From an uncultured Thermoplasmatales archaeon (lineage in GTDB: Archaea > Thermoplasmatota > E2 > UBA202 > DSCA01), in contig CAZESS010000004.1 in assembly GCA_964514975.1 (NCBI GenBank), forward strand, positions 1,708 to 65,707: DNA of 64,000 bases, in the 5' to 3' direction. Made by a program: the position numbers and the translations under genes. The notes below the pieces were generated by a model, which saw nothing but the letters and a program-made list of their open reading frames with translations, was not told where the DNA came from and made no database searches. This document shows, one piece after another, positions 14,874 through 61,704 of this stretch (the stretch's first letter is position 1; every line of letters starts with the position of its first letter).

Positions 14874-15827
14874 ATGGCAAACGATGTCCGGCCGCGAGTG
14901 GTCGTCAGCGCCTGCCTCGAGTTCAAGCCGGTGCGCTACAACGGCCAGGTCATGCCCTCCCGGGTCGTCAGGGACCTGCAGCCCCATGTCGAATATATAA
15001 CGGTCTGCCCGGAGCACGAGATAGGGCTCGGGGTTCCCCGGGACCCCATCCGCATCGTCCGTGAGCAGGGCAAGGAATGGCTCCTGCAGCCCCGGACCGG
15101 GCAGGATGTCACCGAAAAAATGGACAGCTTCACCGATGGGTTTCTCGAAACGCTGCCGCCGGTCGACGGCTTCATCTTCAAGTCGGGGTCGCCCACCATC
15201 GGCCTCCATAACATCAGGGTCTACGCCGGTGTTGACAGCCCGGCCGTCGTCGACAAAACCAGCGGGTTTTTCGCCCGGAAAATCATGGAGCGCTACCACG
15301 GCTACCCGATGGAGGAGGACGACCGGTTGCGCAACAGCCGGATACGGCATCATTTTCTCACCAAACTTTTTTCCTTCGCCGCGTTCAGACAGGCAGCCGA
15401 GAGCGACGACCTGCCCGTCTTCCATGAACGCAACCGGCTGCTGTTCGCCGCCTACGATCCATCGGCGGCAGCACAACTGGACGGCGGCATGGATGCAGCA
15501 CGGTACCGCGATGGGATGAAACATGTGCTGTCACGGCCGCCCACAACAGAGAACATCATGACGATGGCGGGACAGATAATGGATGTCATCGCACCGGAGC
15601 TTACATCGGCAGAGCGGGCGTCCGTCGACGAGCAGATACACGCATATGGTGCCAATCGTCTCTCCGAGCAGGGGCTGTTCGTGCTGCTAAGAAGCATTCT
15701 CATCCGGCAGGGGCATCCCCTGAAGGCGCAGACCCTGTTCGCCCCGTATCCATCCGACCTGCTGCCGCCAGCTGAGCAATACCGCGACCATGACTACTGG
15801 AAAAACGGGGCGTTCACCTATGGATGA
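14874..15827 (+). CDS. DUF523/DUF1722 (YbgA-like; 2-thiouracil desulfurase-related) protein
   Basis: VSACL...VRYNG, VCPE.EIGLGVPR.PIR, GFIFKSGSPT, GFFA, EEDDRL; overlaps the photolyase start. Confidence 0.88.
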   Translation: MANDVRPRVVVSACLEFKPVRYNGQVMPSRVVRDLQPHVEYITVCPEHEIGLGVPRDPIRIVREQGKEWLLQPRTGQDVTEKMDSFTDGFLETLPPVDGFIFKSGSPTIGLHNIRVYAGVDSPAVVDKTSGFFARKIMERYHGYPMEEDDRLRNSRIRHHFLTKLFSFAAFRQAAESDDLPVFHERNRLLFAAYDPSAAAQLDGGMDAARYRDGMKHVLSRPPTTENIMTMAGQIMDVIAPELTSAERASVDEQIHAYGANRLSEQGLFVLLRSILIRQGHPLKAQTLFAPYPSDLLPPAEQYRDHDYWKNGAFTYG

Positions 15828-17157
15828 CCGTCGGGTCCGACAGCTCAACGATGCATCCCGCCGAGCAGGCCCCGTGGTGTACTGGATGAGCCGAGACCAG
15901 CGCGCCCGTGACAACTGGGCGCTCCTCTATGCGCAGGCGCTCGCCGCGGCGCATGACACCACGACGATGGTCGTTTTCTGCCTCGTCCCATCGTTTCTCG
16001 GCGCGACGGCACGGCAGTATGATTTCATGCTCGAGGGGCTCCGGGAGACAGCGGCTGTGCTCCACGAGCACGGCATCCCGTTTTATCTGCTGTCGGGCGA
16101 GCCAGGGGAACGCATCCCTCGCTTCGTTGAACGGCATGACGTCGGTGCCCTGGTCACCGATTTCGACCCGCTGCGGGTCAAACGGGAATGGAGACAGCAG
16201 GTCGCCCGGGCAATCGAGATACCCTGCCTTGAGGTCGACGCGCACAACGTGGTTCCCTGCCGGGTTGCCTCAGACAAAAAAGAATACGCCGCATACACCA
16301 TCCGCCCGAAGATACATCGACAGCTCTCCACGTTTCTCCAGCCCTTCCCCGCGCTGCGGCGGCAGACGCCATCCGAAAACCTGCCCGACAATGACTGGAC
16401 GGCAGCCCGGCCATCCCTCGACATCGATGACAGCGCTACGGTCGACTGGCTGACATCCGGCCCATCCGCGGCGCGTGAAACACTCCAGCGCTTCGTCAGA
16501 GGCAGGCTCGAGGGCTACCCCGACCGGCGGAACGACCCAACCGTCGACGGGCTGTCGAACCTGTCGCCCTATCTGCATTTTGGTCACATCGCAGCGCAGC
16601 GAGTGGCCCTTGAGGTGCAACAGGCCGATGTTTCACGGGAGGCACGGGACGCGTTTCTGGAGGAGCTGCTGGTCCGCCGTGAGCTCTCCGACAACTTTTG
16701 CCTCTACGAGCCCTGGTATGACAGCCCCCAGGGGTTCCCGGACTGGGCACAAAAAACGCTGGCGGAGCACCGCGACGACGAGCGGGAACATGTCTACACG
16801 CTGGAGGAGTTCGAACGGGCGGCGACGCATGACGAGCTGTGGAATGCAGCGCAGATGGAGATGGTGAAGCAGGGCAAGATGCACGGCTACCTCAGGATGT
16901 ACTGGGCGAAAAAAATCCTGGAGTGGACGGCATCGCCCGGGGAGGCAATGAGCATCGCCATCTATCTCAATGACCGCTACGAGCTCGACGGCCGCGACCC
17001 AAACGGATATGCAGGCGTGGCATGGGCAATCGGCGGCGTGCACGACCGTGCGTGGCCGGAACGTCCTGTCTACGGCAAAATCCGTTACATGAGCCATGGC
17101 GGGGCGCAGCGAAAGTTCGACGTCGACGGCTACATCGCATCCGTTATGGCGCGATGA
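15820..17157 (+). CDS. phr: Class II CPD DNA photolyase
   Basis: VVYWMSRDQRARDNWAL, LSNLSPYLHFGHI, GKMHGYLRMYWAKKILEW, LDGRDPNGY, IGGVHDRAW, GKIRYM. Confidence 0.96.
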   Translation: MDDRRVRQLNDASRRAGPVVYWMSRDQRARDNWALLYAQALAAAHDTTTMVVFCLVPSFLGATARQYDFMLEGLRETAAVLHEHGIPFYLLSGEPGERIPRFVERHDVGALVTDFDPLRVKREWRQQVARAIEIPCLEVDAHNVVPCRVASDKKEYAAYTIRPKIHRQLSTFLQPFPALRRQTPSENLPDNDWTAARPSLDIDDSATVDWLTSGPSAARETLQRFVRGRLEGYPDRRNDPTVDGLSNLSPYLHFGHIAAQRVALEVQQADVSREARDAFLEELLVRRELSDNFCLYEPWYDSPQGFPDWAQKTLAEHRDDEREHVYTLEEFERAATHDELWNAAQMEMVKQGKMHGYLRMYWAKKILEWTASPGEAMSIAIYLNDRYELDGRDPNGYAGVAWAIGGVHDRAWPERPVYGKIRYMSHGGAQRKFDVDGYIASVMAR

Positions 17158-18199: not shown

Positions 18200-18967
18200 A
18201 TGGAAGCAAATGAAACCACGTTTTTGCGACTGCGGCGGTTCAACGCCGTCATGGGCGTCATACATCTGATACAGTCGGGGCTGATGTTCATACTCAGCAA
18301 CGACAACACCTGGGAAGTATTCTACACATACGCGAAATACATCGAGGGCGAAGGACTCGTCCCGCAAACGACACCGTTCGCCGACATCCAGCTCGCGCCG
18401 CTCGTCGCCCTGTTCCTGCTCATCTCAGCCATCGCCCATTTCACCCTGGCCACCATCGGCTACGACTGGTACAAGCGCAACCTCAAACAGCACATGAACC
18501 CGGCGCGGTGGTACGAGTACTCCATCAGCGCCTCGCTCATGATCGTCATCATCGCCATGCTCACCAACATACTCGACCTGGGCACACTGATCGCCCTGTT
18601 CGCGCTGACCGCGGTCATGAACCTCATGGGCCTGATGATGGAGCTGCACAACCAGACGACGGAGCAAACGAACTGGACGGCCTACATCATCGGCTGCATC
18701 GCCGGCATCGTTCCCTGGATCGTCATCGCCATCTCGCTGGTCGGCGCCAGCATCCAATCCGGCGGACAGGTCCCCGACTTCGTTATCGGCATCTACATCT
18801 CCATCGCCGTGTTCTTCAACCTCTTCGCCGTCAACATGGCGCTCCAGTACAAAAAAATCGGGAAATGGCGGGACTACCTCTACGGCGAACGGATGTACAT
18901 CGTCCTCAGCCTTGTCGCCAAATCGGCGCTGGCATGGCAGATATTCTTCGGCACCCTACAGCCCTAG
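18200..18967 (+). CDS. heR: Heliorhodopsin
   Basis: FNAVMGVIHLIQ (TM1 His), AIAH, NPARWYEYSISAS (Arg and counterion Glu), YLYGERMYIVLSLVAKSALAW (retinal-binding Lys); 7 TM. Confidence 0.95.
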   Translation: MEANETTFLRLRRFNAVMGVIHLIQSGLMFILSNDNTWEVFYTYAKYIEGEGLVPQTTPFADIQLAPLVALFLLISAIAHFTLATIGYDWYKRNLKQHMNPARWYEYSISASLMIVIIAMLTNILDLGTLIALFALTAVMNLMGLMMELHNQTTEQTNWTAYIIGCIAGIVPWIVIAISLVGASIQSGGQVPDFVIGIYISIAVFFNLFAVNMALQYKKIGKWRDYLYGERMYIVLSLVAKSALAWQIFFGTLQP

Positions 18968-33690: not shown

Positions 33691-34926
33691 CTACAGATTG
33701 AACACGAGCGCCCGTATCTCCTGCTCCCGGGCGTTGCCGGCGGTGTCGACGGCTCGTGCCTCGATGCTGTGGAACAACACCGCCCGCTCGTTCCATACAA
33801 CGGTGTAGGGTGCCTCACGGTCGACCGCCAGCAACTCGCCGTCTATGGAAAACGCGACATGGTCGACCGCGCTGTCGTTGTCCACGGCGCTGACCTCTAT
33901 GGTGATGCCGCCAACGATGACCGATGCGTCGAATGGCAGTGGCGCCGCCTCGTTGTCCTGCACGTAGAGCATGCCCTGCCGTGGTCGCTGAAAGGACAGC
34001 ACAGGGGGCTCCCAGTCCTCCTCGGTGAGCGTGGCGAGCTCGGTCAGGGTGCCGACCATGAGCCGGGTGACCCTGGTCGCATAGTCAAGGTCCATCTTGT
34101 CGATGGTGTCATCCGGCGAGTGGTAGTAGTCGTTGAACTCGTATTCGAAGAAAAAGGTTGCGTTGAACCCGTAGCGGATGAAGGAATGATGGTCGCTGTA
34201 GGGATGGCTGGGCTCCCTCGCCACGGTGAGGTTGAGCGCATGGTAGCGGCCGGTGACATTGATTGACATGTTGGTTATCCACTGCGATGCAGGGGTTTCC
34301 TGTACCTCGATGGTGTGCCGCCCTACGTCGCTTTTGGCGTAGCCGATCATGTCGGCGTTGAGGACGCCCACAATGTTTTCATGGCTCTCGTTGGCCTCCC
34401 TGGCGTATTCGTGGCTGCCGAGCAGGCCCTCCTCCTCGCCTGAAAACGTGACGAAGCGGACGGTGTGCTGGAACCGGTAGCTGCTGAGCGTATGCGCTGC
34501 GGCGAGCACCGCCGCCACGCCGGAGCCGTCGTCGTCGGCGCCCGGCGAGCCCGGGACGGTGTCATAGTGGGCGCAGATGACATAGACGCGGTCGCTCGTC
34601 TGGTTGACGCCGGGCAGTGTCGCCTCGACGTTGACGCCCTCGTAGCCGTTGTACTCCCACTCGTGCATCCGGACCGACAGGTCGTAGGAGGAAAAAGCAC
34701 CGGCGATGTAGTCGGCTGCCTCCTGGCACTCCGAAGTTTCGGTGACCCGGGGACCGATGTCCTGCAGGGCCTGGACGTAGCCCGTGACCATGCTCTGGCT
34801 GACGTCGTCCATGACGTCGCCGGTGTCAATCGAGGCGTGTGCAACGGCGAGGGATGCATCAAAAACAGCGAACGACGGTGCCACCAGGCAGACCGCGACC
34901 AGCATGACTCCAAGCGCTTTGTGCAT
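33691..34926 (-). CDS. Secreted M28-family aminopeptidase with a C-terminal Ig-like domain
   Basis: Signal peptide; AHYDT, PGADDDGSG, FSGEEEGLLGS, NADMIG, SDHHSF, YHSPDDT. Confidence 0.92.
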   Translation of the reverse strand: MHKALGVMLVAVCLVAPSFAVFDASLAVAHASIDTGDVMDDVSQSMVTGYVQALQDIGPRVTETSECQEAADYIAGAFSSYDLSVRMHEWEYNGYEGVNVEATLPGVNQTSDRVYVICAHYDTVPGSPGADDDGSGVAAVLAAAHTLSSYRFQHTVRFVTFSGEEEGLLGSHEYAREANESHENIVGVLNADMIGYAKSDVGRHTIEVQETPASQWITNMSINVTGRYHALNLTVAREPSHPYSDHHSFIRYGFNATFFFEYEFNDYYHSPDDTIDKMDLDYATRVTRLMVGTLTELATLTEEDWEPPVLSFQRPRQGMLYVQDNEAAPLPFDASVIVGGITIEVSAVDNDSAVDHVAFSIDGELLAVDREAPYTVVWNERAVLFHSIEARAVDTAGNAREQEIRALVFNL

Positions 34927-35121
34927 ACATAGAGCAACGGCGGCTGAATTTAAATATTATGGCCACATCTGCTCCATCATTCCATGTCGTGTGCCGTTAT
35001 TGCTCCCACATCCCCCGGGGACGCCGATGACACCCCCGGATGGAGCCTCGGCAATGATGCACCAGCAGGAAAAGAAAAATGCCCTGAATACCGGGGCACC
35101 GGCATGAGCAGTCCCCGGACG

Positions 35122-36105
35122 CTATCCCTCGAAGACGAGCTGCGGCGACCGGTCAAGGGTTACCCGGGGCATGCGCGCGCTGTAGCCGGCACGCGTCGAG
35201 CTGTCGTAGCTGTCCATGTCGGTCTCCTCCAGCATCTCGCGGCCGCGCTCCCTGGCCTTTTCAACGCTCATGTTTATCTTCATGACCTCGCCGGGGAGCG
35301 CCCGCTTCACCAGGAAGTTCCAGCCGGCGCCCGCGCCATAGGGCAGCCCCTCAAGCACCATCATGGTGTCTTCGACGGGATAGTTCCACATGCCGGTCGG
35401 GTCGTCCCCAAACTTGGCGAGGGGGACGCCCATCGCGACCTCGTATTCCGGGGTGAACGTGGGGTCGGTGGTGACCCATTCACCGTCGATGAGCACCTCC
35501 GCCGTGCCGTGCAGCATGAACGAGCCAAAGGCGTCATACCAGTGCTGGAGCACCCGGCTGGCGCCGATCATATTGTCATACATGGATTCAACGAGCGCAA
35601 GGCTGTACAGCCGATAGCGCGCCGACAGGCCGGCGGTGCGGCACAGGGCTGCAAAAAGCGACAGCTGGTGCAGGCAGGTTCCGCTGCCCCGCCGGAGCGT
35701 TTCAACGGCGCCGTCGAGCGGCACGAAGGAAAGCCTGATATTGTTTTTGACGAAGTCGAAGACCGCCTCAGCATATGCCCGGTCGGGAAGCTCAAATGCG
35801 CCGAGCCGGTGGGCCATGGCAACGATGTCGGGGGCATGGCTGTTGCAGAAATGTGTCGGGCGGAGATATCGCCTGTTTTCGTCATAATAGCGCATGTCGT
35901 CATGGTGCTCGGGTACACTATAGGGCGGGTCGGCCTGTATCGCCTCCCGGTCGATATGTTTGGCCGCCTTGTTAGCCCTGACGACGGCGACGGGATGCAA
36001 AAGGATGCCCTTCAAAAGCGCGGGGATGGTCCGTGCGACGTTTTTGAACATCCGCCAGGGCATGATGTAGTTTTTTTCCCTGACCTCTCTGAGCCTCTGT
36101 ATCAC
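35122..36105 (-). CDS. Transglutaminase-like (Cys-His-Asp) domain protein
   Basis: ETLRRGSGTCLHQLSLFAALCRTAGLSARY, HGTAEV, WVTTDPT; GTG start overlaps the upstream TGA; no signal peptide. Confidence 0.88.
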   Translation of the reverse strand: MIQRLREVREKNYIMPWRMFKNVARTIPALLKGILLHPVAVVRANKAAKHIDREAIQADPPYSVPEHHDDMRYYDENRRYLRPTHFCNSHAPDIVAMAHRLGAFELPDRAYAEAVFDFVKNNIRLSFVPLDGAVETLRRGSGTCLHQLSLFAALCRTAGLSARYRLYSLALVESMYDNMIGASRVLQHWYDAFGSFMLHGTAEVLIDGEWVTTDPTFTPEYEVAMGVPLAKFGDDPTGMWNYPVEDTMMVLEGLPYGAGAGWNFLVKRALPGEVMKINMSVEKARERGREMLEETDMDSYDSSTRAGYSARMPRVTLDRSPQLVFEG

Positions 36106-37511
36106 TGGCTCACCTCGTCGAGGTCGCTGAGCAGCATCTTGCGCATCTCCTCCGCGCAGCCCCGTATTTCCTCGCCGGCCATCCGGCTGACCTCGGGCTC
36201 CAGCACCGGTCCCTCGCGGCCGCAGACGGGGCAGCGCTCAAGCAGCTTCACCCGGTCGCCGGTGAAAATGAAGCCGGGGTAGCTCATTGCCAGGCCGTCG
36301 AGGAACGCGAACTTGCCGTATTCGCCGTAGCCGAGCGGCTGATTGCTCTCGTCGAGCACCATCGGCTGGATGTAGTTGTGCGGAATGTGCAGATAATGGC
36401 CCTCGGGGCACTGCATCATGAAAGCGTTGCTTTCCACCATCGCATAGAGGTCGAGGCACTGCCGGTCGGGGATCCCCAGATATTTCTCCACCTTGTCCCT
36501 GAAATCCTCGACGGGCAATCGCTTGTCCTCGTGGACCTTCCATCCACCGCCGGTGATCACGGCACCGCGCTCGCCGAAGTCGAAGCGCATGCCCTCCTGC
36601 TCCATCCGGTTCATGACCAGGTCGAGGATAAATGGGGCGCCAAAAAAGCCGATGTGCCGGCCGGTGGGCTCGAGGCGTTCAAGCCAGCTGATGATGTCGC
36701 CGACCATTTTCTGGTTGCGGCGCTTGGAGGTGAGCCGGGCGACGCCGCTCATCAGTTTTTCCTTCAACCCCTGCGGTCGTCCCATCGAGATGCGGATGAG
36801 GTCGGTGGTGATCTCGCGGTCGATGGCGACCTCGACGTTTTTCACGACGGCATTGGGGAGCACAGCGGTGACCTTGCCCACCCAGAGGTTGGTTTTGTGG
36901 GGATGCGGAAACAGCAGGTAGGCATCGGAGTCATATTCCCACCAGTCGCTCAGCATTTCCAGGCAGCATCGGGCGATGGCATATTCTGCATTGTGATAGG
37001 TCCGCCGGTCGCGGGGGATGAACGTAAACCGGCCGGTTGTGCCGCTGGAATATGCGATCGTGACACCGGAGCGCTCGAAGCTTTCGATGACGTCGTCATA
37101 GGTCGGCTCCGCCGAGTCAATCGTCACCCTGGGTATCTCCCCAGTCATGACGTTGGCGACCCACATGGCGAACTCTTTGCCCTCCGGGTAGTCCTTGAAA
37201 AACCGGTGGGAGAGCAATGGAATCCGGTGGAAGTCATCGAATCCCTTGATGTCATCGGGCGAGACGTCGTGCTCGCGGCAGAAGTCATGATAAAACGTGT
37301 TGTTTTCATAGTGATGTCTGAAGGCATGCCGGATGGCATCGAGCCGGTACCGCTCGGCCTGCTCCGCAGAGGTGCCATACATGCTCTGGGGCTCATAGAG
37401 CGCCACCTCCCCGGGATGCTGCGGGCCCTGTTCCGGCAGATAGCTGGCCAGGCGCCTGTTGACTTCTTCAAGAAACGGGGAATCGGTGTCTTTCGTTGTT
37501 GCAAATGCCAT
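36102..37511 (-). CDS. LuxE-like acyl-protein synthetase (adenylate-forming)
   Basis: IPLL...FK, YSSGTTGR phosphate loop, TGGGWK, DLYAMVE, CPEGHYLHIP, SYPGFIFTGD, C-terminal EIRGC. Confidence 0.85.
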   Translation of the reverse strand: MAFATTKDTDSPFLEEVNRRLASYLPEQGPQHPGEVALYEPQSMYGTSAEQAERYRLDAIRHAFRHHYENNTFYHDFCREHDVSPDDIKGFDDFHRIPLLSHRFFKDYPEGKEFAMWVANVMTGEIPRVTIDSAEPTYDDVIESFERSGVTIAYSSGTTGRFTFIPRDRRTYHNAEYAIARCCLEMLSDWWEYDSDAYLLFPHPHKTNLWVGKVTAVLPNAVVKNVEVAIDREITTDLIRISMGRPQGLKEKLMSGVARLTSKRRNQKMVGDIISWLERLEPTGRHIGFFGAPFILDLVMNRMEQEGMRFDFGERGAVITGGGWKVHEDKRLPVEDFRDKVEKYLGIPDRQCLDLYAMVESNAFMMQCPEGHYLHIPHNYIQPMVLDESNQPLGYGEYGKFAFLDGLAMSYPGFIFTGDRVKLLERCPVCGREGPVLEPEVSRMAGEEIRGCAEEMRKMLLSDLDEVSQ

Positions 37512-37785
37512 GGTATCTCCTGATAGGTGACGAATGATTGAGCGGTTGTTAAATAACGTTTTCTCAACGGGAATTGAACCCGGTTAAAAAAAATTTTAAC
37601 TCCTGTTGCCGGCACGCCGCATCCGACAAAAACGGCCACAATACATGTATACACGCACGGGATACACACACGTTAGATACAAATATCACAGAGCATCACC
37701 CGATGGCACACCGGCGACATTCCCTGTTCCGCCAAAAACAACTTTTATATAACACATCGCCATTCCGATGTCTGTCGCGATTGCT

Positions 37786-38430
37786 ATGGCAGCTACAGAA
37801 ATAGTTACCGCAGTACAAAAAGCACTGGATGAAGACCACAACAAAAAACGGAACTTCACCCAGACCGTAGACCTGGCTATAAACCTCAAAGACATCGACA
37901 TGAACGAGCCCTCAAACCGCGTCGACGAAGAAATACACCTGCCGTCGGGACGAGGCGAAGACGCAAAGGTGGGCGTATTCGGCAGCGGAGAAATGGCTCT
38001 CAAGGCAAAAGAGGTTGCCGACGACGTCTTCGAACCCGACGAAATAGAGGACATCGCCGACGATGCCGCACAGGCCAAACAAATAGCGGAAACCTATGAC
38101 TTTTTCATCGCAGCGGCGCCACTCATGCCGAGCATCGGTAAACACCTCGGTCGGTTCCTGGGGCCCCGCGGCAAGATGCCGACACCGGTACCCCCGACGG
38201 TCGACATCGCCGACGAGGTCGAACGGCTCCGCCACACCGCCCGTATCCGCTCCCGAAGCGCCACCACGTTCCACTGCCGGGTGGGCACGGAAACCATGGA
38301 CCCGGAGGACATCGCCGACAACATCGACGCCATCCTCAAAATCCTCGAAGAAAAGCTGGAGCGCGGCCGCAACAACATCGACGCCATCTACGTGAAAACG
38401 ACAATGGGTAAACCCGTCGAGGTGGCCTAA
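37786..38430 (+). CDS. rpl1: 50S ribosomal protein uL1
   Basis: KRNFTQTVDLAINLKD, LGRFLGPRGKMP, YVKTTMGKPV; TATA-like ttttatataa at ~37743. Confidence 0.97.
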   Translation: MAATEIVTAVQKALDEDHNKKRNFTQTVDLAINLKDIDMNEPSNRVDEEIHLPSGRGEDAKVGVFGSGEMALKAKEVADDVFEPDEIEDIADDAAQAKQIAETYDFFIAAAPLMPSIGKHLGRFLGPRGKMPTPVPPTVDIADEVERLRHTARIRSRSATTFHCRVGTETMDPEDIADNIDAILKILEEKLERGRNNIDAIYVKTTMGKPVEVA

Positions 38431-42715: not shown

Positions 42716-43192
42716 ATGAAAGAACTCATGCAGCGCCTTGCAGACCTGCTGACCGAGCGTGATGTGATGGTTGCCACCGCGGAGTCCTGCACCGGCGGGC
42801 TCATCGGGGACACGCTGACGAGCGTTCCGGGCAGCTCCACGTATTATGAGGGCGGCGTCATCTCGTACAGCAACGCCCTGAAACAGCGATTCCTCAACGT
42901 TGCGGCGGAGACCCTCATGCGGCATGGAGCCGTCTCGGAGCAGACAGCCCGGGAGATGGCCATCGGAATACGCAATGCTGCGGACGTCGACGTCGGCCTG
43001 GCGACCACAGGCATCGCGGGTCCGGGCGGCGGCACACCCGGGAAGCCGGTCGGCCTCGTCTACATCGGCTTCGCTAGTGACAACGGGGTAACAGTGCAAA
43101 AACACGTGTTCGACGGCAGCCGGCAGGAAAACAAACAGGCGACCGTGCGGATGGCCTTGCAGATGCTGTATGACCATGTCAGCCATGATTGA
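42716..43192 (+). CDS. pncC: CinA C-terminal domain / NMN deamidase
   Basis: [46 protein letters not shown]. Confidence 0.9.
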
Positions 43193-44213
43193 CGTCGACG
43201 GCTCCCATGGCGAGGGTGGCGGACAGATACTCCGGATGACGGTGGCGCTGTCCGCGCTGACCGGCAGACCAATCCATGTCTCCAACATCCGGGCCGGGCG
43301 CTCGAACCCCGGGCTGCGCCCGCAGCACATCGCGGCTATCGAGGCGGTCCGGCGGCTCTGCAACGGCCATGCCGAAAACCTGCACGAGCATGCCACCGAT
43401 ATAACGTTTCATCCCCGCGAGGTGGCGGGCGGCAGCCATTTCGTTGACATCGGCACCGCTGGCAGCATCACGCTTGCGATGCAGGCCTGTCTCCCTCCGA
43501 TGCTGCACGCCATGGAGCCGGCCGGGATGCGACTGCGGGGTGGCACCGACGTAAGATGGTCGCCGCCCTGGGATTATTTCACCCGGGTGTTCCTGCCGTT
43601 GCTCCGCCACATGGACGTGGATGCAGCGGCGACGCTGGAGAAGCGGGGCTATTACCCGAAGGGTGGCGGCATCGCATCTCTTGAAATGCAGCCCTGCACA
43701 CATCTCACGCCGCCCTCGTTCGACCGGGACGGCGACTGGCATATCGAGGGAAAAATAAACATCGCCGGATTGCCGGGGCACATCGCCCGCCGCATTCGGA
43801 AGGCAGCCCGGAAAGAATTCATCAGCCGGGGGATGGACGCCGACATCGCCATCGAAACATATGAGGCGGCGTCGCCCGGTGTGGGCATCGTGCTCTGGAC
43901 GACAGGGCCGCGGCGGCTGGGCGCCGACGTGCTCGGCGAGAAGGGAAAACCGGCGGAGGCCGTCGGCAGGGAGGCAGCGCAGATGCTGCTGGAGGAAATC
44001 GATGCCGGCGCCGACCTGGACGTCCACGCGGTCGACCACCTCGTTCCCTACATGGCGCTCGCCGATGAGCCGTCATGCTTTCGCTGCCGTGAGCTGAGCG
44101 GACACGCGGAGACAGAGCTCTGGCTCCTCCAGCGATTTATGGACATATCATGGGAAAAAAAGATGGGCGATGGATGCATCGAGGTCGGTGTCAGCCCAGG
44201 AGAAACAGGATGA
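43185..44213 (+). CDS. rtcA: RNA 3'-terminal phosphate cyclase
   Basis: DGSHGEGGGQILR, PGLRPQH, GTAGSITL, GGTDV..SP, RGYYPKGGG, D.HAVDHL. Confidence 0.94.
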   Translation: MIDVDGSHGEGGGQILRMTVALSALTGRPIHVSNIRAGRSNPGLRPQHIAAIEAVRRLCNGHAENLHEHATDITFHPREVAGGSHFVDIGTAGSITLAMQACLPPMLHAMEPAGMRLRGGTDVRWSPPWDYFTRVFLPLLRHMDVDAAATLEKRGYYPKGGGIASLEMQPCTHLTPPSFDRDGDWHIEGKINIAGLPGHIARRIRKAARKEFISRGMDADIAIETYEAASPGVGIVLWTTGPRRLGADVLGEKGKPAEAVGREAAQMLLEEIDAGADLDVHAVDHLVPYMALADEPSCFRCRELSGHAETELWLLQRFMDISWEKKMGDGCIEVGVSPGETG

Positions 44214-49168: not shown

Positions 49169-51205
49169 GTGGCAGAAGAACAGGAAGAACTGAAGGAGCA
49201 GCTTCCACCCATAGATACATGGATGCAGGAGCAGGACGTCGAAACGTCGGATGACATCGAGATACCCGATACGTTGATGGAGCAGGTCATCGGACAGGAT
49301 CATGCCGTCGAAGTCGTCCGGCAGGCCGCCCGGCAGAAGCGCCATATCATGCTCATCGGCGACCCGGGCACCGGCAAATCGATGATAGCCCGGGCGATGA
49401 CCGAGTTCCTGCCGACCGAGGAGCTCGAGGACATCCTCACCTATCCAAACCAGGACGACCCCAACACGCCTCGGGTGCGCATCGTTCCCGCCGGCAAGGG
49501 CAAGGACATCGTCGACGCGATGAAGGCCGAGGCCCGAAAGCGCAAGCAGCAGCAGTCCCAGATGATGGCCACCATCCTCGCACTCATCGTCGGCGGTGCC
49601 ATCATCGGCGCCATCGTCACCGGTGAGCTCACCATCGCCCTGTTCGGCATCATCGCCGCGGCGATGATATATCTCATCGGGATGCGCGGCGGCATGATGC
49701 AGAATCAGGAGGAAAAGGACGTGCCCAAGCTCCTTGTGTCACATGAAGACGAGGACTCGCCGCCGTTTGTCGACGCGACGGCCGCACATTCGGGGGCGTT
49801 GCTCGGCGACGTTCGCCATGACCCGTTTCAGGCGGGCGGCCTTGAGACGCCGCCGCATCTGCGCGTTGAGGCAGGCGCCATCCACAAGTCACATCGCGGG
49901 GTCCTGTACATCGACGAGATCAACACGTTGAGCCTGCCGTCACAGCAGCACCTTTTGACGGCGATCCAGGAAGAGGAATTCCAGATCACCGGGCAGTCGG
50001 AGCGGAGCAGCGGCGCCATGGTGAAGACAGAGTCGGTGCCCTGCGATTTCATTCTGGTCTGTGCGGGCAACCTCGACGCCGTCGAGGGGATGCATCCCGC
50101 ATTGCGGAGCCGCATCCGGGGCTACGGCTACGAGATATATATCAAGAGCGACATGGAGGACAACGACGAAAACCGGACGAAGCTCATCCGATTCGTCGCG
50201 CAGGAGGTCGCCAAGGATGGCCAGATCCCGCATTTCGACCGGGCGGCCATCACCGAGATCATCCGGGAGGCACAGCGCCGGGCCGGCCGGAAGGGAAAGC
50301 TGTCGCTTCGCCTGCGTGAGCTCGGCGGGCTCGTCCGGGCGTCGGGTGACCTCGCCATCAGGGAGGAGGCGGACATCGTGACCGCCGATCATGTCGTCAG
50401 GGCGAAAGAGCTTTCCTCGTCGCTTGAGCAGCAGGTGGCTGAGCGCTACCTGCAGAAAAAGAAGACCTATCAGTCGTTCAAGACCATGGGCGCCGAGATC
50501 GGCACGGTGAACGGCCTCGCCGTTATGTCCGCCGACCCGTCTATGAGCGAGTTCGCGGGCCTGATTTTGCCGATCGTCGCCGAGGTCACCCCTGCCGGCT
50601 CCAAGTCGGAGGGCAAGATCATCGCCACGGGGCGCCTGGGAGAAATTGCCAGTGAGGCGGTGCAGAACGTCTCCGCCATCCTCAAAAAATACATGGGAAA
50701 AGACATTTCGAAGCGCGATATCCACATCCAGTTCGTCGGCACCTATGAGGGTGTGGAGGGTGACTCCGCCTCGATTTCTGTTGCAACGGCGGTCATCTCG
50801 GCGATGGAAAACGTGCCACTGTCACAGGAGGTCGGCATGACCGGGTCATTGAGCGTCCACGGCGCCGTGCTGCCCGTCGGCGGCGTCACCGCGAAGATAG
50901 AGGCAGCGGCCAAGGTCGGCCTGAAAAAGGTGCTCATCCCGCGGGCGAACATGCAGGACGTGCTCATCGAGGACAAGTACAAGGACCAGATAGAGATCGT
51001 GCCCGTTGAAACATTGAAGGACGTGCTGGACAACGTGCTGGTCGGCGGCAAAAAGGACGGGTTGATGCAGAAGCTCGAGAAGCTGCAGCCGTCGGTGGTC
51101 AGCAAGGTCGACCTGGAGTCGGAGCGGGCAACGAGCAAGGTACCCCGCACGGGAAAACAGCAGGGGCAGCCGCAGAGTGCCTCCAGCAATGATGGCGAGG
51201 GCTAG
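49169..51205 (+). CDS. lonB: Membrane-bound ATP-dependent protease LonB
   Basis: [18 protein letters not shown] insertion, [27 protein letters not shown] (catalytic Ser), GGVTAK (Lys). Confidence 0.97.
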
Positions 51206-52562: not shown

Positions 52563-55238
52563 TCATGACAGCATCCCCCGTCTGAACATGAGGTATATGG
52601 TCGCCCCAGCACCGATGATTGCGACGGCGGCGCCGATGATGAGCCAGGAGGGTCCACCGCTGTCGTCGTCTCCTCCGGGGACGGAAAACTGCATGGTTTG
52701 TTGGTTGTTGTCCTCGTTTTGCTCGTGGATGTCATCGTTCGGGTCGACATCCGCTTTGAGCGTGTGGGTTCCGGCGGTGACGTTGACGGCCTGCGTATGC
52801 TCTACCTGGCCGCCGGCTTCGATGGAGGGCAGCATGATGGAGGCTATCACTGTGTCGTCCATGATGATGTCCAGCGATGTCTGGTTTGCATTTCCGGTTC
52901 CGTTGTTGGCCACGGTGACGGTGACCTGAACCGTGTCACCGGCGTCCGGTGATGCAGGGGTCATGGCCAGGCCGGCGAGTATGAGGTCGGGCTGCAATGG
53001 CTCCGGCGCTGCCACGGATATCTCCGTGCTTGTTTCGTCGGTCATGCCGTCGTTGTCCGTCACGGACAGCGTGACCGTGTAGGTGCCGTCTTCGCTGTAG
53101 CTATGCGACGGATTCTCCTGGATGGCAGTGGCGCCGTCTCCGTAGCTCCACTGCCATGCGGTGATGCTGCCGTCGGGGTCGCTGCTCTGGTCGGTAAACG
53201 TCACGGTGCGGCCGTCCATGCTGTATGAGAAGGTAGCGGTGGGCGGCCTGGGCTCCGGAGGCGGAGGCGTGGGCTCCTGCCGGACCATGAAGCTCCATGT
53301 GTCCGATTGGGTGGCGGCGGCGCCGTCGTCGGCGACCGCATACCAGCGATATGTGGCGGCGTAGCTCAGGCCGCTCCATGTCACGCTGGCCGTATCACCG
53401 CTGGCAACGGCGGCTACAGACTCTATTTCGCTGCCGACATCCGTGTAAAACGTGACATCCATACTGTCTCCATCGGGGTCGAATACCGTGACCTGCAGGG
53501 TAACCGTCCGCGCCGTGCCGCTCGCCCCATCATTCGGCGAGGGATTGGACGGCTGCTCTGGCGGCTCGTTCACCGGCATGGTCTCGGTGGTAAACATCCA
53601 TGCCTGGGAGGTAGTGGCGTTGCGGCCGTCGTCGGCGACCGCATACCAGCGATATGTAGCGGCGTAGCTCAGGCCGCTCCATGTCACGCTGGCCATGGTG
53701 CCGCTGACCACGTCGGATATTGTATCGATGATGTCGTCGTTGCTGGCATCGTGAAAGGTGACATTCATCGAGTCGCCGTCCTGGTCCGCAACCGAAACCT
53801 GCAGTACAGCGTTCCGGGATACATTGTTCGCTCCATCATCCGGCGAGGGGTCGGATGGCTGCTCCGGCGGATTGTTGGCCGTTACCGTGACATCCCGCCG
53901 GGTTGTGTTAATCGCCCCGTCGTCATCGGTGACCGTCAGGGCGACCGTGTAGGTGTCGGCATGCTCATAGACATGCGTGGGGTGCTGCTCATGGGCGGTG
54001 GTACCGTCGCCGAAATCCCATGTCCAGTTGACGATGTCGCCGTCGTCGGTGCTCTCGTCGGTGAACGCAACCGGGTGTCCCGCACGGGGTTCCACCGGGG
54101 TATAGGAAAAATGTGCGGTGGGTGGCGGACTGGCAATTGTGAGCATCGCCGTGGTGGTGTTCGTCAGCCCGTCGTCGTCCGTCACGGACAGCGTCACCGT
54201 CTGGTTTCCCATTGCCTGATACCGATGGGTGACAACGGTGCCCGTATCGCCGGCGCCGTCTCCAAATGCCCAGGTGTAAGCGACGATGTCGCCGTCGGGG
54301 TCGCTGCTGTTCGCTGCGTCGAAGGTAACGGTCTCGTTTTTCACGGGCATCCGGGGATGCCATGCAAACGACGCCGTCGGCGCAACCGGCGAGGTAGACT
54401 CAAGGAGCACCTGTGCATTCCGGACATATACGGGTATCTCCTGTGCTGCCGTGTCGCTCAGGGTGACGTTCGAGATGTTGAGGTAACAGAGAGCGCCCTC
54501 GGTCCTGGGACTGAAGTGCAGCGTGGCGATATGGCCGCTCCCGGTTGTGTTTGTCCGGCCGACGAGGTGTACGATGCCGTCCTCCTGGCTCAGGGTGACG
54601 GATACCGGCGCGCCGTCGATTGAGCCATTGTCTGCCCCGGTGAACGACAGCAGGACGGGATCGTAGTGCAGGTCGAGGTTTACGCTGCTGAGGTTGGTGA
54701 CGTTGGAAACATTGATGGATGCATCGAAGGCTCCCTGCACGGTCTCGGGTGCCTGTACCTCGAGCAGCGTGCCGGCAACGGTAACCCGATGGCCATGCCA
54801 CGATGCCGGTATCTCCTGGCCGTCTCCATCGCTCAGGTTTCCCTCGATATCGAGGTCCGAATGGCCTGCTGCGGTGCAGGAAAACATTACCGTGGCGAGA
54901 TAGCCGGAGCCGTTGACCGGCTGCAATCCCATGTCGTTGACGATGTGCAGCACGCCGTCGTGCACGCTCGCGCTGGTCGGCACATCGGTGCCGTTGACGC
55001 TGCCGTTTTCGACCGATGCGACCGTGAGATATGAGGCGTTGTAGGAAACGGTAACGCTGGCCGCGTTGAATCCGGTCAGCTCTGACACTGATATCTGCAC
55101 CGAGATGTTCTGGCCGAGCAGCGCCATGTCCGGTCCCGCCAGGGACACCGATGGCTGCCCTTCGCCGGCGGCGGGCACGGCGGCGCCGATGGTCATGATG
55201 CAGCATGCACAGGCCAGCAGCGCAGCAACCTGTTTCAT
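52563..55238 (-). CDS. Membrane-anchored scaffoldin-like protein: signal peptide, 2 cohesins, 3 PKD, 2 Ig/FN3-like, CARDB, C-terminal TM with basic tail
   Basis: Cohesin-like units ISVQISV...VSYNASYL...GSGYLATVMF and ASINV...LHYDPVLL...GSGHIATLHF; W.FGDG/YGDG PKD motifs; VDPNDDIHEQNEDNN (CARDB); WLIIGAAVAIIGAGATIYLMFRRG. Confidence 0.82.
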   Translation of the reverse strand: MKQVAALLACACCIMTIGAAVPAAGEGQPSVSLAGPDMALLGQNISVQISVSELTGFNAASVTVSYNASYLTVASVENGSVNGTDVPTSASVHDGVLHIVNDMGLQPVNGSGYLATVMFSCTAAGHSDLDIEGNLSDGDGQEIPASWHGHRVTVAGTLLEVQAPETVQGAFDASINVSNVTNLSSVNLDLHYDPVLLSFTGADNGSIDGAPVSVTLSQEDGIVHLVGRTNTTGSGHIATLHFSPRTEGALCYLNISNVTLSDTAAQEIPVYVRNAQVLLESTSPVAPTASFAWHPRMPVKNETVTFDAANSSDPDGDIVAYTWAFGDGAGDTGTVVTHRYQAMGNQTVTLSVTDDDGLTNTTTAMLTIASPPPTAHFSYTPVEPRAGHPVAFTDESTDDGDIVNWTWDFGDGTTAHEQHPTHVYEHADTYTVALTVTDDDGAINTTRRDVTVTANNPPEQPSDPSPDDGANNVSRNAVLQVSVADQDGDSMNVTFHDASNDDIIDTISDVVSGTMASVTWSGLSYAATYRWYAVADDGRNATTSQAWMFTTETMPVNEPPEQPSNPSPNDGASGTARTVTLQVTVFDPDGDSMDVTFYTDVGSEIESVAAVASGDTASVTWSGLSYAATYRWYAVADDGAAATQSDTWSFMVRQEPTPPPPEPRPPTATFSYSMDGRTVTFTDQSSDPDGSITAWQWSYGDGATAIQENPSHSYSEDGTYTVTLSVTDNDGMTDETSTEISVAAPEPLQPDLILAGLAMTPASPDAGDTVQVTVTVANNGTGNANQTSLDIIMDDTVIASIMLPSIEAGGQVEHTQAVNVTAGTHTLKADVDPNDDIHEQNEDNNQQTMQFSVPGGDDDSGGPSWLIIGAAVAIIGAGATIYLMFRRGMLS
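53322..53694. repeat. 70-bp near-identical intragenic repeat (53322-53391 and 53625-53694, one mismatch)
   Basis: Both copies encode ASVTWSGLSYAATYRWYAVADDG; offset 303 bp. Confidence 0.85.
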
Positions 55239-57736
55239 GCCAATCCCAGGATCATCTGGATAACGAGGGTCACGTCGGCGGTGGTCACCGTGCCGTCAGC
55301 GTTGGCGTCAGCCGGCGGCGGATACTCCGCGCCGGGATGAGCGGCAAGGTGCTGTACGACCAGGTCTGTCTTCGTGATGTCGAGCGCGTTGATGCGGCCG
55401 TCCATGGTGGCGTCGCCGCGTCGCCAGACCGATATCTCCCGCGATGTCACCTGACTGTTTCCGTAGCTGTCGGTCGTGCTCAGCGTCACGGTGTAGGAGC
55501 CAGGCTGGCTGTAGGTATGGGATACGTTCGGACCCGTTGCGCTTCCGCCGTCGCCAAACGTCCATGTCCATGTGGCTATGCTGCCGTCGGCGGTACCGTT
55601 GAACGACACGGTTTCGTTGACGAACGGGAATGAATGAGTGTAGTTCACCGCTGTACGCTCCACCGTCGTGAACAAACGGGTCGGGGATGTCGTGGTGGCC
55701 ATGCCGTCCGATGCCGTCACATGCCAGGTATAGGTTTGCCCGTGCTCGAGGGTGCAGGCGACGCTCATGGTGCCGTTGCCGGTCTCCGTGGTGTGCACTG
55801 CCGTTCCGTTGAGATAAAACACGGCGTCCATGGTGTCGCTGTCGGGATCGGTGACCGTGGCTCTGAGGGAAAGGTTTGCATTGGTGGTGCTTCCGTTGCC
55901 GGGGGATTCCAGCGCGATGGATGGCGGATGGTTGTCGCCGGCGGGAACCGTGACGTTGCGCTTTTCGCCATATGCGATCCGCCCGGTGTCGCCCACGGCG
56001 ATTGCCCGGTAGTAATAGGTCTTGCCTGCTGCAACGCCGGGTATGCTCGCATTGAAACCGCCCGTCCGGTTGGTGGCCACAACGTTGGTGGAGGATTTTT
56101 TGCCGTTCCAGTATTCGAACCAGAGGTAGCATGATGTGCTGTCGCCGAGCGCTGTTAGGTTGCCGTGCAGCGTGGCGTTTTCTCCGGTGATGGTGGCCTG
56201 TCCCGTGGTGACCGTTGGGGCTGCGGGCACGGATGTCATCCGGAATGACAGCATGGTGCCGTTGTATCTGCCCTGGCTGTTGTTGACGACGGCCCGGTAA
56301 TGGTAGGTGGTGTTCCCGGCGAGTCCTGTTACCACCGTGCTGACCGGGCCCTCGCCGGTGATTGTCTGCACGGGCGTGGTCATCGTGAGATTATCGTTTT
56401 GGCCGTATTCGAACCAGACCTCGCATGTCTGGTCGCCGCCCATGTCGGTGACGTTTGCCTGCAGCACGACCGCGTGCTCCACCGAGCCGGTGTCCACCTG
56501 CGCCTTGACCGCCGTGGTGGTAAACGTGCCGTCCTGCCCGTAGGTGGCGCCCGCGCTGTTTTCGGCTACCGCCCGATAATGATAGGTCGTGCCCGGCTGG
56601 AGTCCGGTCAGCGTGCCGGTGAAGGAGCCGTCGTCAAGGGACATTGCCTGGGTGGCCGAGCCGTAGGCCGTCGTTGGCCCGTATTCGAACCATACAGTGC
56701 ATTGTTCGCCGCCCCAGTCGTCAAGGGTGCCCCTGAGCGTGGCGGTGCTGCTGGTGACATTGTCGGCGCTCCCGGTTGTCACGGCGGGCCGGACGACATG
56801 GGTGGTAAACGTTTTGGTGGAGCCATCTGTCTCCCCGGCGGTGTTGCTGGCATACGCCCGGTATTGATAGGTGGTGTCGAGCGACAGGTCGGTGAGCGTG
56901 TGGGAAAAGCTCCCGGAAGAATGCATCGTGGTATTCCCGACGGCGACATGGCTGCCGTCCGTCCAGTATTCGAACCATACGGTGCAGTTGTTCGCGCCCG
57001 GGCTGCTCAGGTAGCCGTTCAGCCTGGCGCTGTCGTAGTCGACCGAGCTCGCCGCGTTGGTTGACACCGAGGGCTTCGCCGCCGATGTGTGAAACGTTTT
57101 GTCGTCTCCGTAGCTCTTTTTTTGGCTGTTCTCGGCGACGGCCCTGTAATGATAGGTGGTGTCGGGGTCGAGGCCTGACACCGAGATGGAAAACGAGCCG
57201 GTGCCCGTTTTTTCAACCTTGTCGTCGGTCGATTGGCCATAGGACTGGCTCGTGCCATACTGGAACCATACCTGACAGGTGCCCGTATCCGGGTCGTTCA
57301 GGTCGTTGAGCGTTCCATGCAGCGTTGCGCCGCCGCTGCCTACATCGCTCTCGTCGTTTGTAACAACAGCCGGGAAGCCGACGAGGGAAAAACTGATGTT
57401 CCGGGATGGCTCGCTGACGTCGAGCACGAAGCTTTTGCGGTTTTCCTGCTGGTCATGAACGCAGGACACCTGGATGGTGTCCCCGTTTTCGCAGTTTTCC
57501 AGCGCCGACAGATCCGCCTGGTAGTATCCATCGCTGTTCGTGGTGACAGTCATAAGCGTTGACTTGGACACATCTTTCACCGTCACGGTCACGCCGGACG
57601 GCAGCGTATCCCCGTCAGCGTTTTTGATGACACCGTAGACGGGAAACGACTGGTCGAGCGCGTCGCTCGAAAGCAGCATCGGTATCAGGCTGGTCAACAG
57701 CAGGATGGCTATCATGACACTTTGTATTTTTTTCAT
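55235..57736 (-). CDS. Secreted protein with ~5 FN3-like repeats, PKD and a C-terminal dockerin
   Basis: Signal peptide; repeated (C)xVWFEYG...L.P.TTYHYRAVA; C-terminal GDATMDGRINALDI...ADANADGTVTTADVTLV (duplicated Ca-binding loop-helix). Confidence 0.85.
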   Translation of the reverse strand: MKKIQSVMIAILLLTSLIPMLLSSDALDQSFPVYGVIKNADGDTLPSGVTVTVKDVSKSTLMTVTTNSDGYYQADLSALENCENGDTIQVSCVHDQQENRKSFVLDVSEPSRNISFSLVGFPAVVTNDESDVGSGGATLHGTLNDLNDPDTGTCQVWFQYGTSQSYGQSTDDKVEKTGTGSFSISVSGLDPDTTYHYRAVAENSQKKSYGDDKTFHTSAAKPSVSTNAASSVDYDSARLNGYLSSPGANNCTVWFEYWTDGSHVAVGNTTMHSSGSFSHTLTDLSLDTTYQYRAYASNTAGETDGSTKTFTTHVVRPAVTTGSADNVTSSTATLRGTLDDWGGEQCTVWFEYGPTTAYGSATQAMSLDDGSFTGTLTGLQPGTTYHYRAVAENSAGATYGQDGTFTTTAVKAQVDTGSVEHAVVLQANVTDMGGDQTCEVWFEYGQNDNLTMTTPVQTITGEGPVSTVVTGLAGNTTYHYRAVVNNSQGRYNGTMLSFRMTSVPAAPTVTTGQATITGENATLHGNLTALGDSTSCYLWFEYWNGKKSSTNVVATNRTGGFNASIPGVAAGKTYYYRAIAVGDTGRIAYGEKRNVTVPAGDNHPPSIALESPGNGSTTNANLSLRATVTDPDSDTMDAVFYLNGTAVHTTETGNGTMSVACTLEHGQTYTWHVTASDGMATTTSPTRLFTTVERTAVNYTHSFPFVNETVSFNGTADGSIATWTWTFGDGGSATGPNVSHTYSQPGSYTVTLSTTDSYGNSQVTSREISVWRRGDATMDGRINALDITKTDLVVQHLAAHPGAEYPPPADANADGTVTTADVTLVIQMILGLA

Positions 57737-61695: not shown

Positions 61696-61704
61696 CGTGA
61701 CCTC

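Follow-up and report, generated by a model that had tools for sequence, protein, structure and literature searches.

We describe here a pair of genes that joins a LuxE-type adenylating enzyme to a transglutaminase-fold protein. The pair, whose members we call E and T, lies within 64,000 nucleotides (nt) of an uncultured Thermoplasmatales archaeon (GenBank assembly GCA_964514975.1, contig CAZESS010000004.1, positions 1,708 to 65,707 of the forward strand); this whole stretch is referred to as the window, and its numbering is used for all coordinates that carry no contig or locus prefix. The two genes and their junction are as follows.

36102..37511, minus strand: gene E, a LuxE-family adenylating enzyme (acyl-protein synthetase type) of 469 amino acids (aa), with an ATG start, taken from the list of open reading frames (ORFs)
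35122..36105, minus strand: gene T, a predicted cytoplasmic transglutaminase-fold cysteine enzyme of 327 aa, with a GTG start, taken from the same list
36102..36105, minus strand: GTGA overlap of the E stop codon with the T start codon, of the kind that suggests translational coupling, from the sequence and the ORF ends

The minus strand at the junction reads gag gtg agc cag tga tac aga ggc, where TGA (36104-36102) ends E and GTG (36105-36103) starts T, with the GTGA at 36102-36105 common to both. The GTG start is supported because orthologues of T share the same first residues in our alignment of 27 T sequences (A1). The surroundings of the pair are listed below.

37768-38430, plus strand: rpl1 (Ribosomal_L1, 179 bits), on the upstream side of the pair and divergent from it
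37516..37556, minus strand: putative promoter and ribosome-binding site of E, read by eye (TATA-like ttatttaa at 37549-37556, GGAG at 37516-37522)
35070..35118, minus strand: putative terminator-like hairpin (ccgggg..ccccgg) followed by TTTTTCTTTT, about 5 nt past the T stop, read by eye
33691-34926, strand not given: M28 peptidase gene, the next gene downstream of T; an isoleucyl-tRNA synthetase gene also lies downstream

Because a TATA-like box and a GGAG precede the pair, and the hairpin and an AT-rich box (read by eye between the hairpin with its TTTTTCTTTT and the peptidase gene) follow it, E and T look like a self-contained bicistronic unit. A first-pass annotation had reported both the start/stop overlap and the divergence from rpl1; the minus-strand sequence, the ORF ends and the position of rpl1 bear these out, and its observations on the locus, including ORFs, motifs and Pfam families, were correct in every detail.

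The genome to which the window belongs is 98.9% complete and contains four E genes, each of them directly followed by a T gene. Besides the pair in the window (contig C4), there are pairs on contigs C18, C11 and C1 (C18:1321-3745, C11:7772-10106 and C1:59253-61579; loci L107, L108 and L109), with gaps of 1-4 nt. The paralogues within this genome have diverged to 35-58% identity for E and 27-39% for T. A fifth T gene stands alone (C35:7430-8401, locus L110); its product has an intact Cys-His-Asp triad and an 'IVFEG' tail, and elsewhere genes of its type are the second T of E-T-T operons (L055, L056, L079 and L080). The short contig that carries this lone gene also bears a phage-type integrase gene, and a gene for a secreted protein adjoins the lone T.

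The same arrangement recurs among relatives. Across 41 genomes (this one and 40 relatives), E was found in 40 and T in 40, with both present in 24 of 24 genomes of good quality, and the number of E-T copies is three to five per genome. The adjacency of the two genes was counted on T matches with E-values of at most 1e-18 (n=122) and E matches with E-values of at most 7.6e-16 (n=109); left out of this count were 10 weaker T matches and weak N-terminal matches to other adenylating enzymes (at least 76). An E match lies directly upstream, on the same strand, for 101 of the 122 T matches, and the remaining 21 sit at the ends of contigs or are members of the lone-T clade. We additionally scanned public genomes with the T alignment, using one genome per species, and examined the best 80 of 394 relatives, which correspond to 79 loci with 85 T matches. 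E is encoded directly upstream of T in 65 of these 85 cases and upstream past an intervening gene in 5. Of the others, 4 stand second in an E-T-T operon, 6 lack an E over at least 1.5 kb of upstream sequence, and for 5 the upstream sequence is too short. The paired loci include members of the Methanomassiliicoccales, a Bathyarchaeia genome, an Anaerolineales bacterium and an unclassified bacterium. When the phylum was sampled evenly, T-family proteins were found in 21 of 121 genomes, among them all 11 of the window's order, 8 of 9 from one further family of the class, and one other.

The trees of E and T are mirror images to a large degree: the correlation r across 54 pairs is 0.81, where 500 permutations gave 0.20 at most, and their clades match almost one to one. 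Since kin share their history, the mirrored trees show that the pairs duplicated and diverged as units, and no more than that. As judged from its recurrence, the pairing is more than a product of chance, and the two genes constitute a conserved functional unit. The first-pass annotation had proposed a neighborhood survey of LuxE homologs for recurrent transglutaminase partners or fusions; the partners recur in the proportions given above, and no fused E-T protein was found among proteins of 574-2000 residues, which by the tool's own account is weak evidence. One apparent fusion in a relative (G002, contig C64, locus L111:1-2754; a 918-aa or 1170-aa frame over the T gene) turned out to be a run of N's in the assembly. 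A literature search, with subscription journals mostly outside its reach, returned no paper describing the pairing, in agreement with the earlier remark that it was not known to have been characterised.

Canonical partners of LuxE were not found. LuxC (PF05893) was matched in 0 of the 41 genomes, 24 of which are at least 90% complete, while the same search was positive in 8 of 14 control genomes, and a search for LuxD (PF02273) in the window's own genome gave 0 matches. The absence of luxC and luxD, asserted at first from the window alone, agrees with these searches, in which E has no match to the partners, LuxC and LuxD, with which a lux-type enzyme works. The sole carrier-like match in the window's own genome is a weak PP-binding match (25.9-27.5 bits) in a 176-aa ORF at C6:87564-88091 (L115:1393-1920), on another contig than the window and among neighbors without Pfam matches. 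A carrier-free system is plausible, and this weak match neither supports nor excludes a carrier.

The E protein matches the Pfam family LuxE (PF04443) with 84.7 bits, against a cut-off of 24.9, and its three paralogues in the genome score 98.5-125.5 bits. The NCBIfam equivalog model for the bioluminescence enzyme, LCFA_lig_LuxE, gives 94.5 bits against a cut-off of 550. By these profile scores, E is a genuine LuxE-type enzyme and not an orthologue of the LuxE of bioluminescence. The LuxE chain of the LuxE-LuxC fatty acid reductase (Protein Data Bank entry 7XC6, chain 7xc6_E) matches E with an E-value of 4.4e-19, and the GGGWK motif, an arginine and the cysteine of a G-C pair are aligned between the two. 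In order to assess residue conservation we compared 64 family members from this genome and the 79 public loci. The elements of E that bear on its catalytic role are these.

37029..37052, minus strand: YSSGTTGR, residues 154-161, with S155, S156, G157, T158 and G160 invariant (64/64)
36537..36551, minus strand: GGGWK, residues 321-325, catalytic lysine loop, aligned to the GGGWK of LuxE, with K325 invariant (64/64)
36222..36233, minus strand: CPVC (CxxC), residues 427-430, ahead of the tail, with C427 and C430 invariant (64/64)
36141..36185, minus strand: C-terminal arm, residues 443-457, with Arg443 and the presumed acyl-accepting Cys452 of the RGC motif, from the LuxE alignment

E360, C368, D419, G451 and C452 are likewise invariant in all 64 sequences, and R443 is kept in at least 97% of them. 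The YSSGTTGR loop, which we take to be the phosphate-binding loop (P-loop) of ANL adenylate-forming enzymes, and the RGC cysteine (residues 450-452, with the codon of Cys452 at 36156-36158) are the two features of gene E that the first-pass annotation had pointed out. K325, R443 and C452 align to Lys238, Arg355 and Cys364 of LuxE, where the RGC of E stands opposite KGC. The report on the Photobacterium phosphoreum enzyme assigns adenylation and self-thioesterification in LuxE to Lys238 of the GGGWK loop, to Arg355, and to Cys364 of the TRxxKGCxLS tail motif, and LuxE is described there as being without the C-terminal subdomain of coenzyme A (CoA) ligases (PMC9157457). The same subdomain is missing from E, which continues for only about 40 residues past its CxxCGR motif; in the structural model a short helix (452-461) follows Cys452, and the predicted local distance difference test (pLDDT) value drops to 75, 67 and 40 over the last three 10-residue blocks. 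Judged from its sequence, therefore, E combines the catalytic lysine and arginine with a short cysteine tail in place of the ANL C-terminal subdomain. It differs from LuxE in being about 95 residues longer than the solved chain and in having the conserved CxxC, which has no counterpart at the equivalent position of the aligned Photobacterium LuxE and is similar to the C-x-CGR seen in a PaaK-like ligase.

The structural model of E as a whole is confident (pLDDT 88.5, predicted template modelling score (pTM) 0.90), and the closest solved folds are PaaK1/2, with a TM score of 0.56 normalised to the query. Other PaaK-family ligases (BT_0428, EhpF, AjiA1 and ClxA) follow with TM scores of 0.54-0.56 and E-values down to 2e-16. 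The N-terminal region and the P-loop of E align with this family; E is without the C-terminal subdomain of these enzymes and has the LuxE cysteine tail, and CoA use would not be expected of it.

For the T protein, Transglut_core (PF01841) is the sole Pfam family reported at E-values of at most 0.01; the score of 46.3 bits, against a cut-off of 23, places T in this family and fold. The model of T (pLDDT 87.3, pTM 0.88) adds N-terminal helices of its own and a C-terminal tail to the transglutaminase core. The following residues are of particular interest, with counts from 86 relatives.

35674-35676, minus strand: Cys144, the nucleophile (G-x-C, here GTC), within the Transglut_core match, invariant (86/86)
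35509-35511, minus strand: His199, triad histidine and first residue of HGTAEV, present in 52/86 and replaced by Glu in 34 (the C1-type clade)
35464-35466, minus strand: Asp214, triad aspartate within TDPT, present in 51/86, otherwise His (27), Val (6) or Asn (2)
35845..35868, minus strand: YLRPTHFC, residues 80-87, a family-specific motif before the core, with Y80, L81, R82 and C87 invariant in the 27-sequence alignment

C87 is present in 84 of the 86 relatives. The canonical triad is complete in the T protein of the window, as the first-pass annotation had stated, and in 51 of 86 sequences overall. Many core residues near Cys144 are also invariant among the divergent paralogues, and T looks like an active cysteine enzyme, a view based on conservation and on the modelled fold, whose matches include enzymes that transfer acyl groups (arylamine N-acetyltransferases and GdmF, detailed below). 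The exception to the canonical triad is a clade of 34 of the 86 sequences, which we call C1-type after the T gene of this genome at C1:60599-61579; the 33 others are in loci L055-L103. There the cysteine is invariant, the triad histidine is replaced by glutamate, and the aspartate by histidine (27), valine (6) or asparagine (1), which looks like a swapped dyad rather than simple decay. The earlier claim that T has no signal peptide also holds, insofar as a simple hydropathy scan, used in place of a dedicated predictor, found neither a signal peptide nor a membrane span (maximum 19-residue Kyte-Doolittle mean 1.38).

The T family is small: among 1.84 billion representative proteins 453 match at an E-value of at most 0.001, 109 at 1e-10 and 37 at 1e-30. 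NCBIfam has no model for T, and Protein Atlas returned only unnamed Transglut_core clusters from Thermoplasmatota. We found no relative of T in viral contigs, and neither E nor T had a PADLOC match to anti-phage defence.

In order to examine whether the two proteins could associate, as the first-pass annotation had suggested, we predicted the structure of an E-T complex. The predicted complex obtained a score of 0.61 (runs of 0.62, 0.60 and 0.61), where the score is the model's own confidence, and the best of three controls obtained 0.00. At least 76% of the contacts are common to the runs, and the pLDDT of the partner is at least 81. Of 157 solved complexes 116 attain the mark for this score, as do 2 of 215 mismatched pairs; these figures hold here only roughly because we used our own alignments (30 E and 27 T sequences). 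The two segments that would join the proteins are given below.

35125..35190, minus strand: C-terminal tail of T, residues 306-327 (..MPRVTLDRSPQLVFEG), predicted tether to E
37110..37178, minus strand: predicted docking platform on E, residues 112-134, from the predicted interface, covarying with the type of T tail

Unexpectedly, the confident interface on the side of T consists of the C-terminal tail alone, a segment that has low confidence in the monomer model; on the side of E it comprises residues 72-80, 100-134 and 388-390. The tail carries a conserved motif (..P-K-I-T-L-E..P-x-L-V-F-E), in which P313, L317 and F325 are nearly invariant in the 27-sequence alignment. In weak alignments of E with PaaK proteins, residues 110-142 of E stand opposite about 5 PaaK residues, and the platform may be an insertion specific to the E family; it accounts for part of the extra length of E relative to LuxE. 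A '(T/S)Gx(L/I)P' platform occurs with an '(I/L)(V/I)F' tail in 48 of 54 pairs, and the 6 others (the C11 and C18 types) combine another platform ('VDIGDY..') with other tails. Tails also track the presence of E. The T proteins of two bacterial loci (L086 and L092) are tail-less and come from genomes without a LuxE-family match, and of three lone T genes that do bear a tail, two are in genomes with E; the third is in a 1.0-Mb bin whose completeness is unstated. The conservation of the tail, its covariation with the platform and its co-occurrence with E all fit a docking tail. We also considered that the tail of T might be the substrate of E, through adenylation of its C-terminus, and rejected this: the last residue is variable (G, S, D, E, K and others), and the listed interface has no contact of the tail with the P-loop, K325 or R443.

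Taking these observations together, the best reading of the pair appears to be that LuxE-type self-thioesterification is joined to acyl transfer by a transglutaminase fold. In this two-protein module for acyl activation and transfer, which we hold at a probability of roughly 45%, an ATP-driven thioester relay would run from E to T and on to an amine, with no need for CoA or a carrier protein. E would bind a carboxylic acid and ATP and form an acyl-adenylate by means of the P-loop, K325 and R443, and the acyl group would then move to Cys452 on the flexible C-terminal arm of E, as in LuxE. The conserved tail of T would hold T on E as an added strand on residues 112-134, so that the acylated arm could reach the active site of T and pass the acyl group to Cys144. 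T, standing in the place of LuxC, would finally acylate a nucleophile, with an amine as the likeliest candidate, to yield an amide. The four pairs of this genome could serve different acids or acceptors in parallel. Of this scheme, we infer the thioester on E, the transfer from cysteine to cysteine, the acceptor and which acid is used.

The acyl-transfer proposal of the first-pass annotation is thus strengthened in part, by the conservation of the pair, the absence of LuxC matches, the retention of the catalytic lysine, arginine and cysteine in E and of Cys144 in T, and the predicted complex. Several observations weigh against it. The Cys-Cys proximity that had been anticipated is not among the confident contacts: Cys452 of E and Cys144 of T are both missing from them, as is the whole catalytic domain of T; the model therefore supports a tether and leaves the geometry of a relay unsupported. 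For LuxE, PMC9157457 proposes that a flexible tail takes the acyl group across more than 30 Å to a cysteine in the partner protein. Since the active sites of LuxE and LuxC are this far apart, with a swinging arm proposed between them, the lack of active-site contact in a static model of E and T neither excludes nor supports transfer. The covariation of platform and tail amounts to a difference between two clades and is perhaps the result of a single evolutionary event. The Glu/His dyad of the C1-type clade is at odds with the textbook triad of an acyl-enzyme, and nothing in the data points to a particular substrate. The two loci with tail-less T proteins, both from Chloroflexota, encode a relative of T flanked by major facilitator superfamily (MFS) transporters in genomes without any E; the T fold can accordingly work without E and use a soluble substrate. 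Finally, PaaK-family enzymes, with AjiA1 and ClxA among the fold matches of E, can form ester or amide bonds unaided.

The fold of T is a further point against the relay, as by itself it does not tell a hydrolase from a transferase. The best match of the model is 3isr, an uncharacterised protein annotated as a putative cysteine protease (Z 10.4, root-mean-square deviation 5.3, 173 aligned residues), followed by TglA of S. pyogenes (Z 9.2) and the animal transglutaminases factor XIII, TG2 and TG3 (Z 8.3-8.4); pseudomurein endoisopeptidases and LapG-type proteases were matched as well. T could accordingly be a cysteine amidase or peptidase that frees the acid used by E, in salvage or catabolism, or removes a group that E has attached, which would make the modification reversible, with E acylating the final acceptor alone. 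The T genes of bacteria without E would suit such a division of labor. So would a precedent in bacteria, namely the operons that encode an ATP-grasp protein, an alpha-E protein, a transglutaminase-like component as well as Anbu, whose function is described as unproven in PMC6376114 (citing Iyer et al. 2009). In these operons, too, an ATP-dependent ligase that activates carboxylates is associated, in a conserved manner, with a transglutaminase-like protein of the cytoplasm. They differ from the E-T pair in that their ligase is of the ATP-grasp type and works through an acyl-phosphate, where E is of the ANL/LuxE type and would form an acyl-adenylate; they also have the extra alpha-E and Anbu components and no tail-cysteine thioester, and the E-T pair has no third conserved gene. 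We consider the hydrolase reading rather unlikely, since the predicted tether and the joint diversification of E and T paralogues would be needless if the two proteins shared only a diffusible molecule, and since the invariant Cys452 arm suggests a protein acceptor, as in LuxE-LuxC.

The T model also resembles arylamine N-acetyltransferases (NATs; Z 7.0-7.8 over 172-202 aligned residues) and the amide synthase GdmF (Z 6.6); on the scale of the tool the likeness to NATs lies in the range of a common arrangement. NATs and related amide synthases have a papain/transglutaminase-like fold and use a Cys-His-Asp triad and ping-pong acyl transfer through an acyl-cysteine. Their donor is an acyl-CoA or a polyketide chain, and T differs from them by its own N-terminal helices and its C-terminal docking tail. 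This similarity, together with the existence of T genes without E and with the PaaK-family CoA ligases as the nearest solved folds of E, raises the alternative that there is no relay at all: E would release acyl-AMP, or make an acyl-CoA or another small thioester, and T would use this soluble donor in the manner of a NAT, with the tail serving for channelling only. We regard this as unlikely, because E is without the thioester-forming C-terminal subdomain of CoA ligases and has instead the tail cysteine of LuxE, invariant in its family (compare PMC9157457).

That only the tail of T touches E in the model, and that histidine and aspartate are lost in one large clade, would also be expected if T had no catalytic role and served E as an activator or scaffold, in the way that MbtH-type helpers serve adenylation domains, its triad being a relic. 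The strict invariance of Cys144 and of many core residues across paralogues as divergent as these makes such a role for T very improbable.

The relay that we favor would combine two chemistries that are each known from other systems. On the side of activation this is LuxE-LuxC, with which E shares its Pfam family, the missing C-terminal subdomain, the lysine of GGGWK, the arginine and the G-C cysteine of the tail; the partner there is LuxC, an aldehyde-dehydrogenase-like reductase, and here it is a transglutaminase-fold protein, present with its E in three to five copies per genome. On the side of transfer, PMC7898593 describes AdmF (andrimid) and CtaJ (closthioamide) as homologues of transglutaminases that use carrier-bound thioesters to make amide or thioamide bonds by means of a Cys-His-Asp triad, so that the recruitment of transglutaminase folds as amide-forming acyltransferases, invoked by the first-pass annotation for AdmF, is documented in print. 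The chemistry assigned to T, from a protein thioester to an amine, would be the same. The donor of AdmF and CtaJ is a phosphopantetheinyl carrier protein encoded in a secondary-metabolite cluster, whereas the donor proposed for T is the activating enzyme's own cysteine, and the E-T genes form a stand-alone pair among housekeeping genes, in archaea.

The genes around E-T pairs are indeed of the housekeeping kind (rpl1, eRF1, PdxS, TATA-binding protein, an aspartyl-tRNA synthetase-like protein and others), and only close relatives share them. In the window's own genome the C18 pair lies near genes for a response regulator, TATA-binding protein, a thiolase, HMG-CoA synthase and a DUF35-type protein; the C11 pair comes after HMG-CoA reductase and before an EamA transporter, and the lone T on C35 follows a geranylgeranyl-reductase-like flavoprotein gene. 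These mevalonate-type and flavoprotein neighbors do not recur in the 79 public loci, and we did not use them as a clue to the substrate. For the subtype found in the window, the sole recurrent neighbor is a Mut7-C RNase-like gene (178.7 bits), seen in 14 loci (L033-L044, e.g. L033:3710-4177) that are mostly of this subtype. In those loci it starts at the T stop; it is absent after T in the window, and it suggests no chemistry, so the neighborhood of this subtype offers no hint of a substrate.

The C1-type subfamily has a more informative neighborhood. In 21 loci (L048-L089, e.g. L048:3289-4716) the gene right after T encodes a multi-span membrane protein of about 430-490 aa; this protein has no Pfam match apart from a weak similarity to Nramp in two members. 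An MFS transporter follows T in 8 loci and an ATP-binding cassette (ABC) ATPase in 5, and in 7 an extended short-chain dehydrogenase/reductase, which matches NAD_binding_4 as well, is placed either between E and T or next to T. The recurrence of transporters next to C1-type T genes favors a small molecule over a protein as the substrate, at least in this subfamily. These neighbors bear on yet another explanation, in which E activates the carboxylate of a peptide or protein, at its C-terminus or on a side chain, and T links the activated group to a lysine, in the manner of an E1/E2-like or isopeptide system. Passage from an adenylate to a cysteine thioester, to a second cysteine and to an amine is the logic of ubiquitin-type cascades, transglutaminases make isopeptide bonds, and the placement of the pairs among housekeeping genes would be in keeping with protein tagging. 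The transporters of the C1-type loci argue in the other direction, as do the absence of a conserved small ORF alongside the pairs and the small-molecule acid pockets of PaaK/LuxE-type enzymes, and we judge protein tagging to be quite improbable.

A wider form of the relay can be sketched, tentatively and with considerable doubt. It would be a carrier-free and CoA-free relay built from two unrelated folds, with a self-thioesterifying ANL enzyme in an E1-like role and a tail-tethered transglutaminase-fold enzyme in an E2-like or condensation-like role. Each genome would hold three to five mutually orthogonal copies, each with its own tail-platform code and each producing a different N-acyl amide, either as a small molecule or on a protein or lipid head group. 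One subfamily would have the Glu-His swap, and a second, canonical T would be recruited there to the same E.

Several other genes of the window may be recorded here. A heliorhodopsin gene (18200-18967, plus strand; Pfam 329 bits) is located about 1 kb downstream of a DNA photolyase gene (15790-17157, plus strand), and both are light-related. Very large genes for surface proteins are found at 36-6275 (plus strand) and 52563-63969 (minus strand), with beta-helix/NosD, PKD, Big_7, cohesin, dockerin and CARDB domains; the region of the first (2079 aa) has a G+C content of 0.40-0.49, compared with about 0.60 elsewhere. Housekeeping genes of the window include those for the RNA 2'-phosphotransferase Tpt1/KptA (13977-14618, plus strand), the RNA 3'-phosphate cyclase RtcA (43170-44213, plus strand) and the archaeal LonB protease (49169-51205, plus strand).

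If the proposed relay is correct, it would constitute a third way, beside CoA and carrier proteins, of passing an ATP-activated acyl group between enzymes. It would also show a role of LuxE-type enzymes outside bioluminescence, and it would widen the small set of transglutaminase-fold enzymes that build amide bonds instead of cross-linking or cutting proteins. The predicted docking of a 22-residue tail on its platform is a testable handle, and the pairs are candidates for orthogonal two-enzyme tools for amide formation. Among the genomes examined, every sufficiently complete genome of the order has the E-T pair, in several copies, and the relay would then be part of core metabolism throughout an order of uncultured archaea from sediments and mats. 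Its products could bear on those parts of archaeal lipid, cofactor or protein modification chemistry for which we know of no enzymes.

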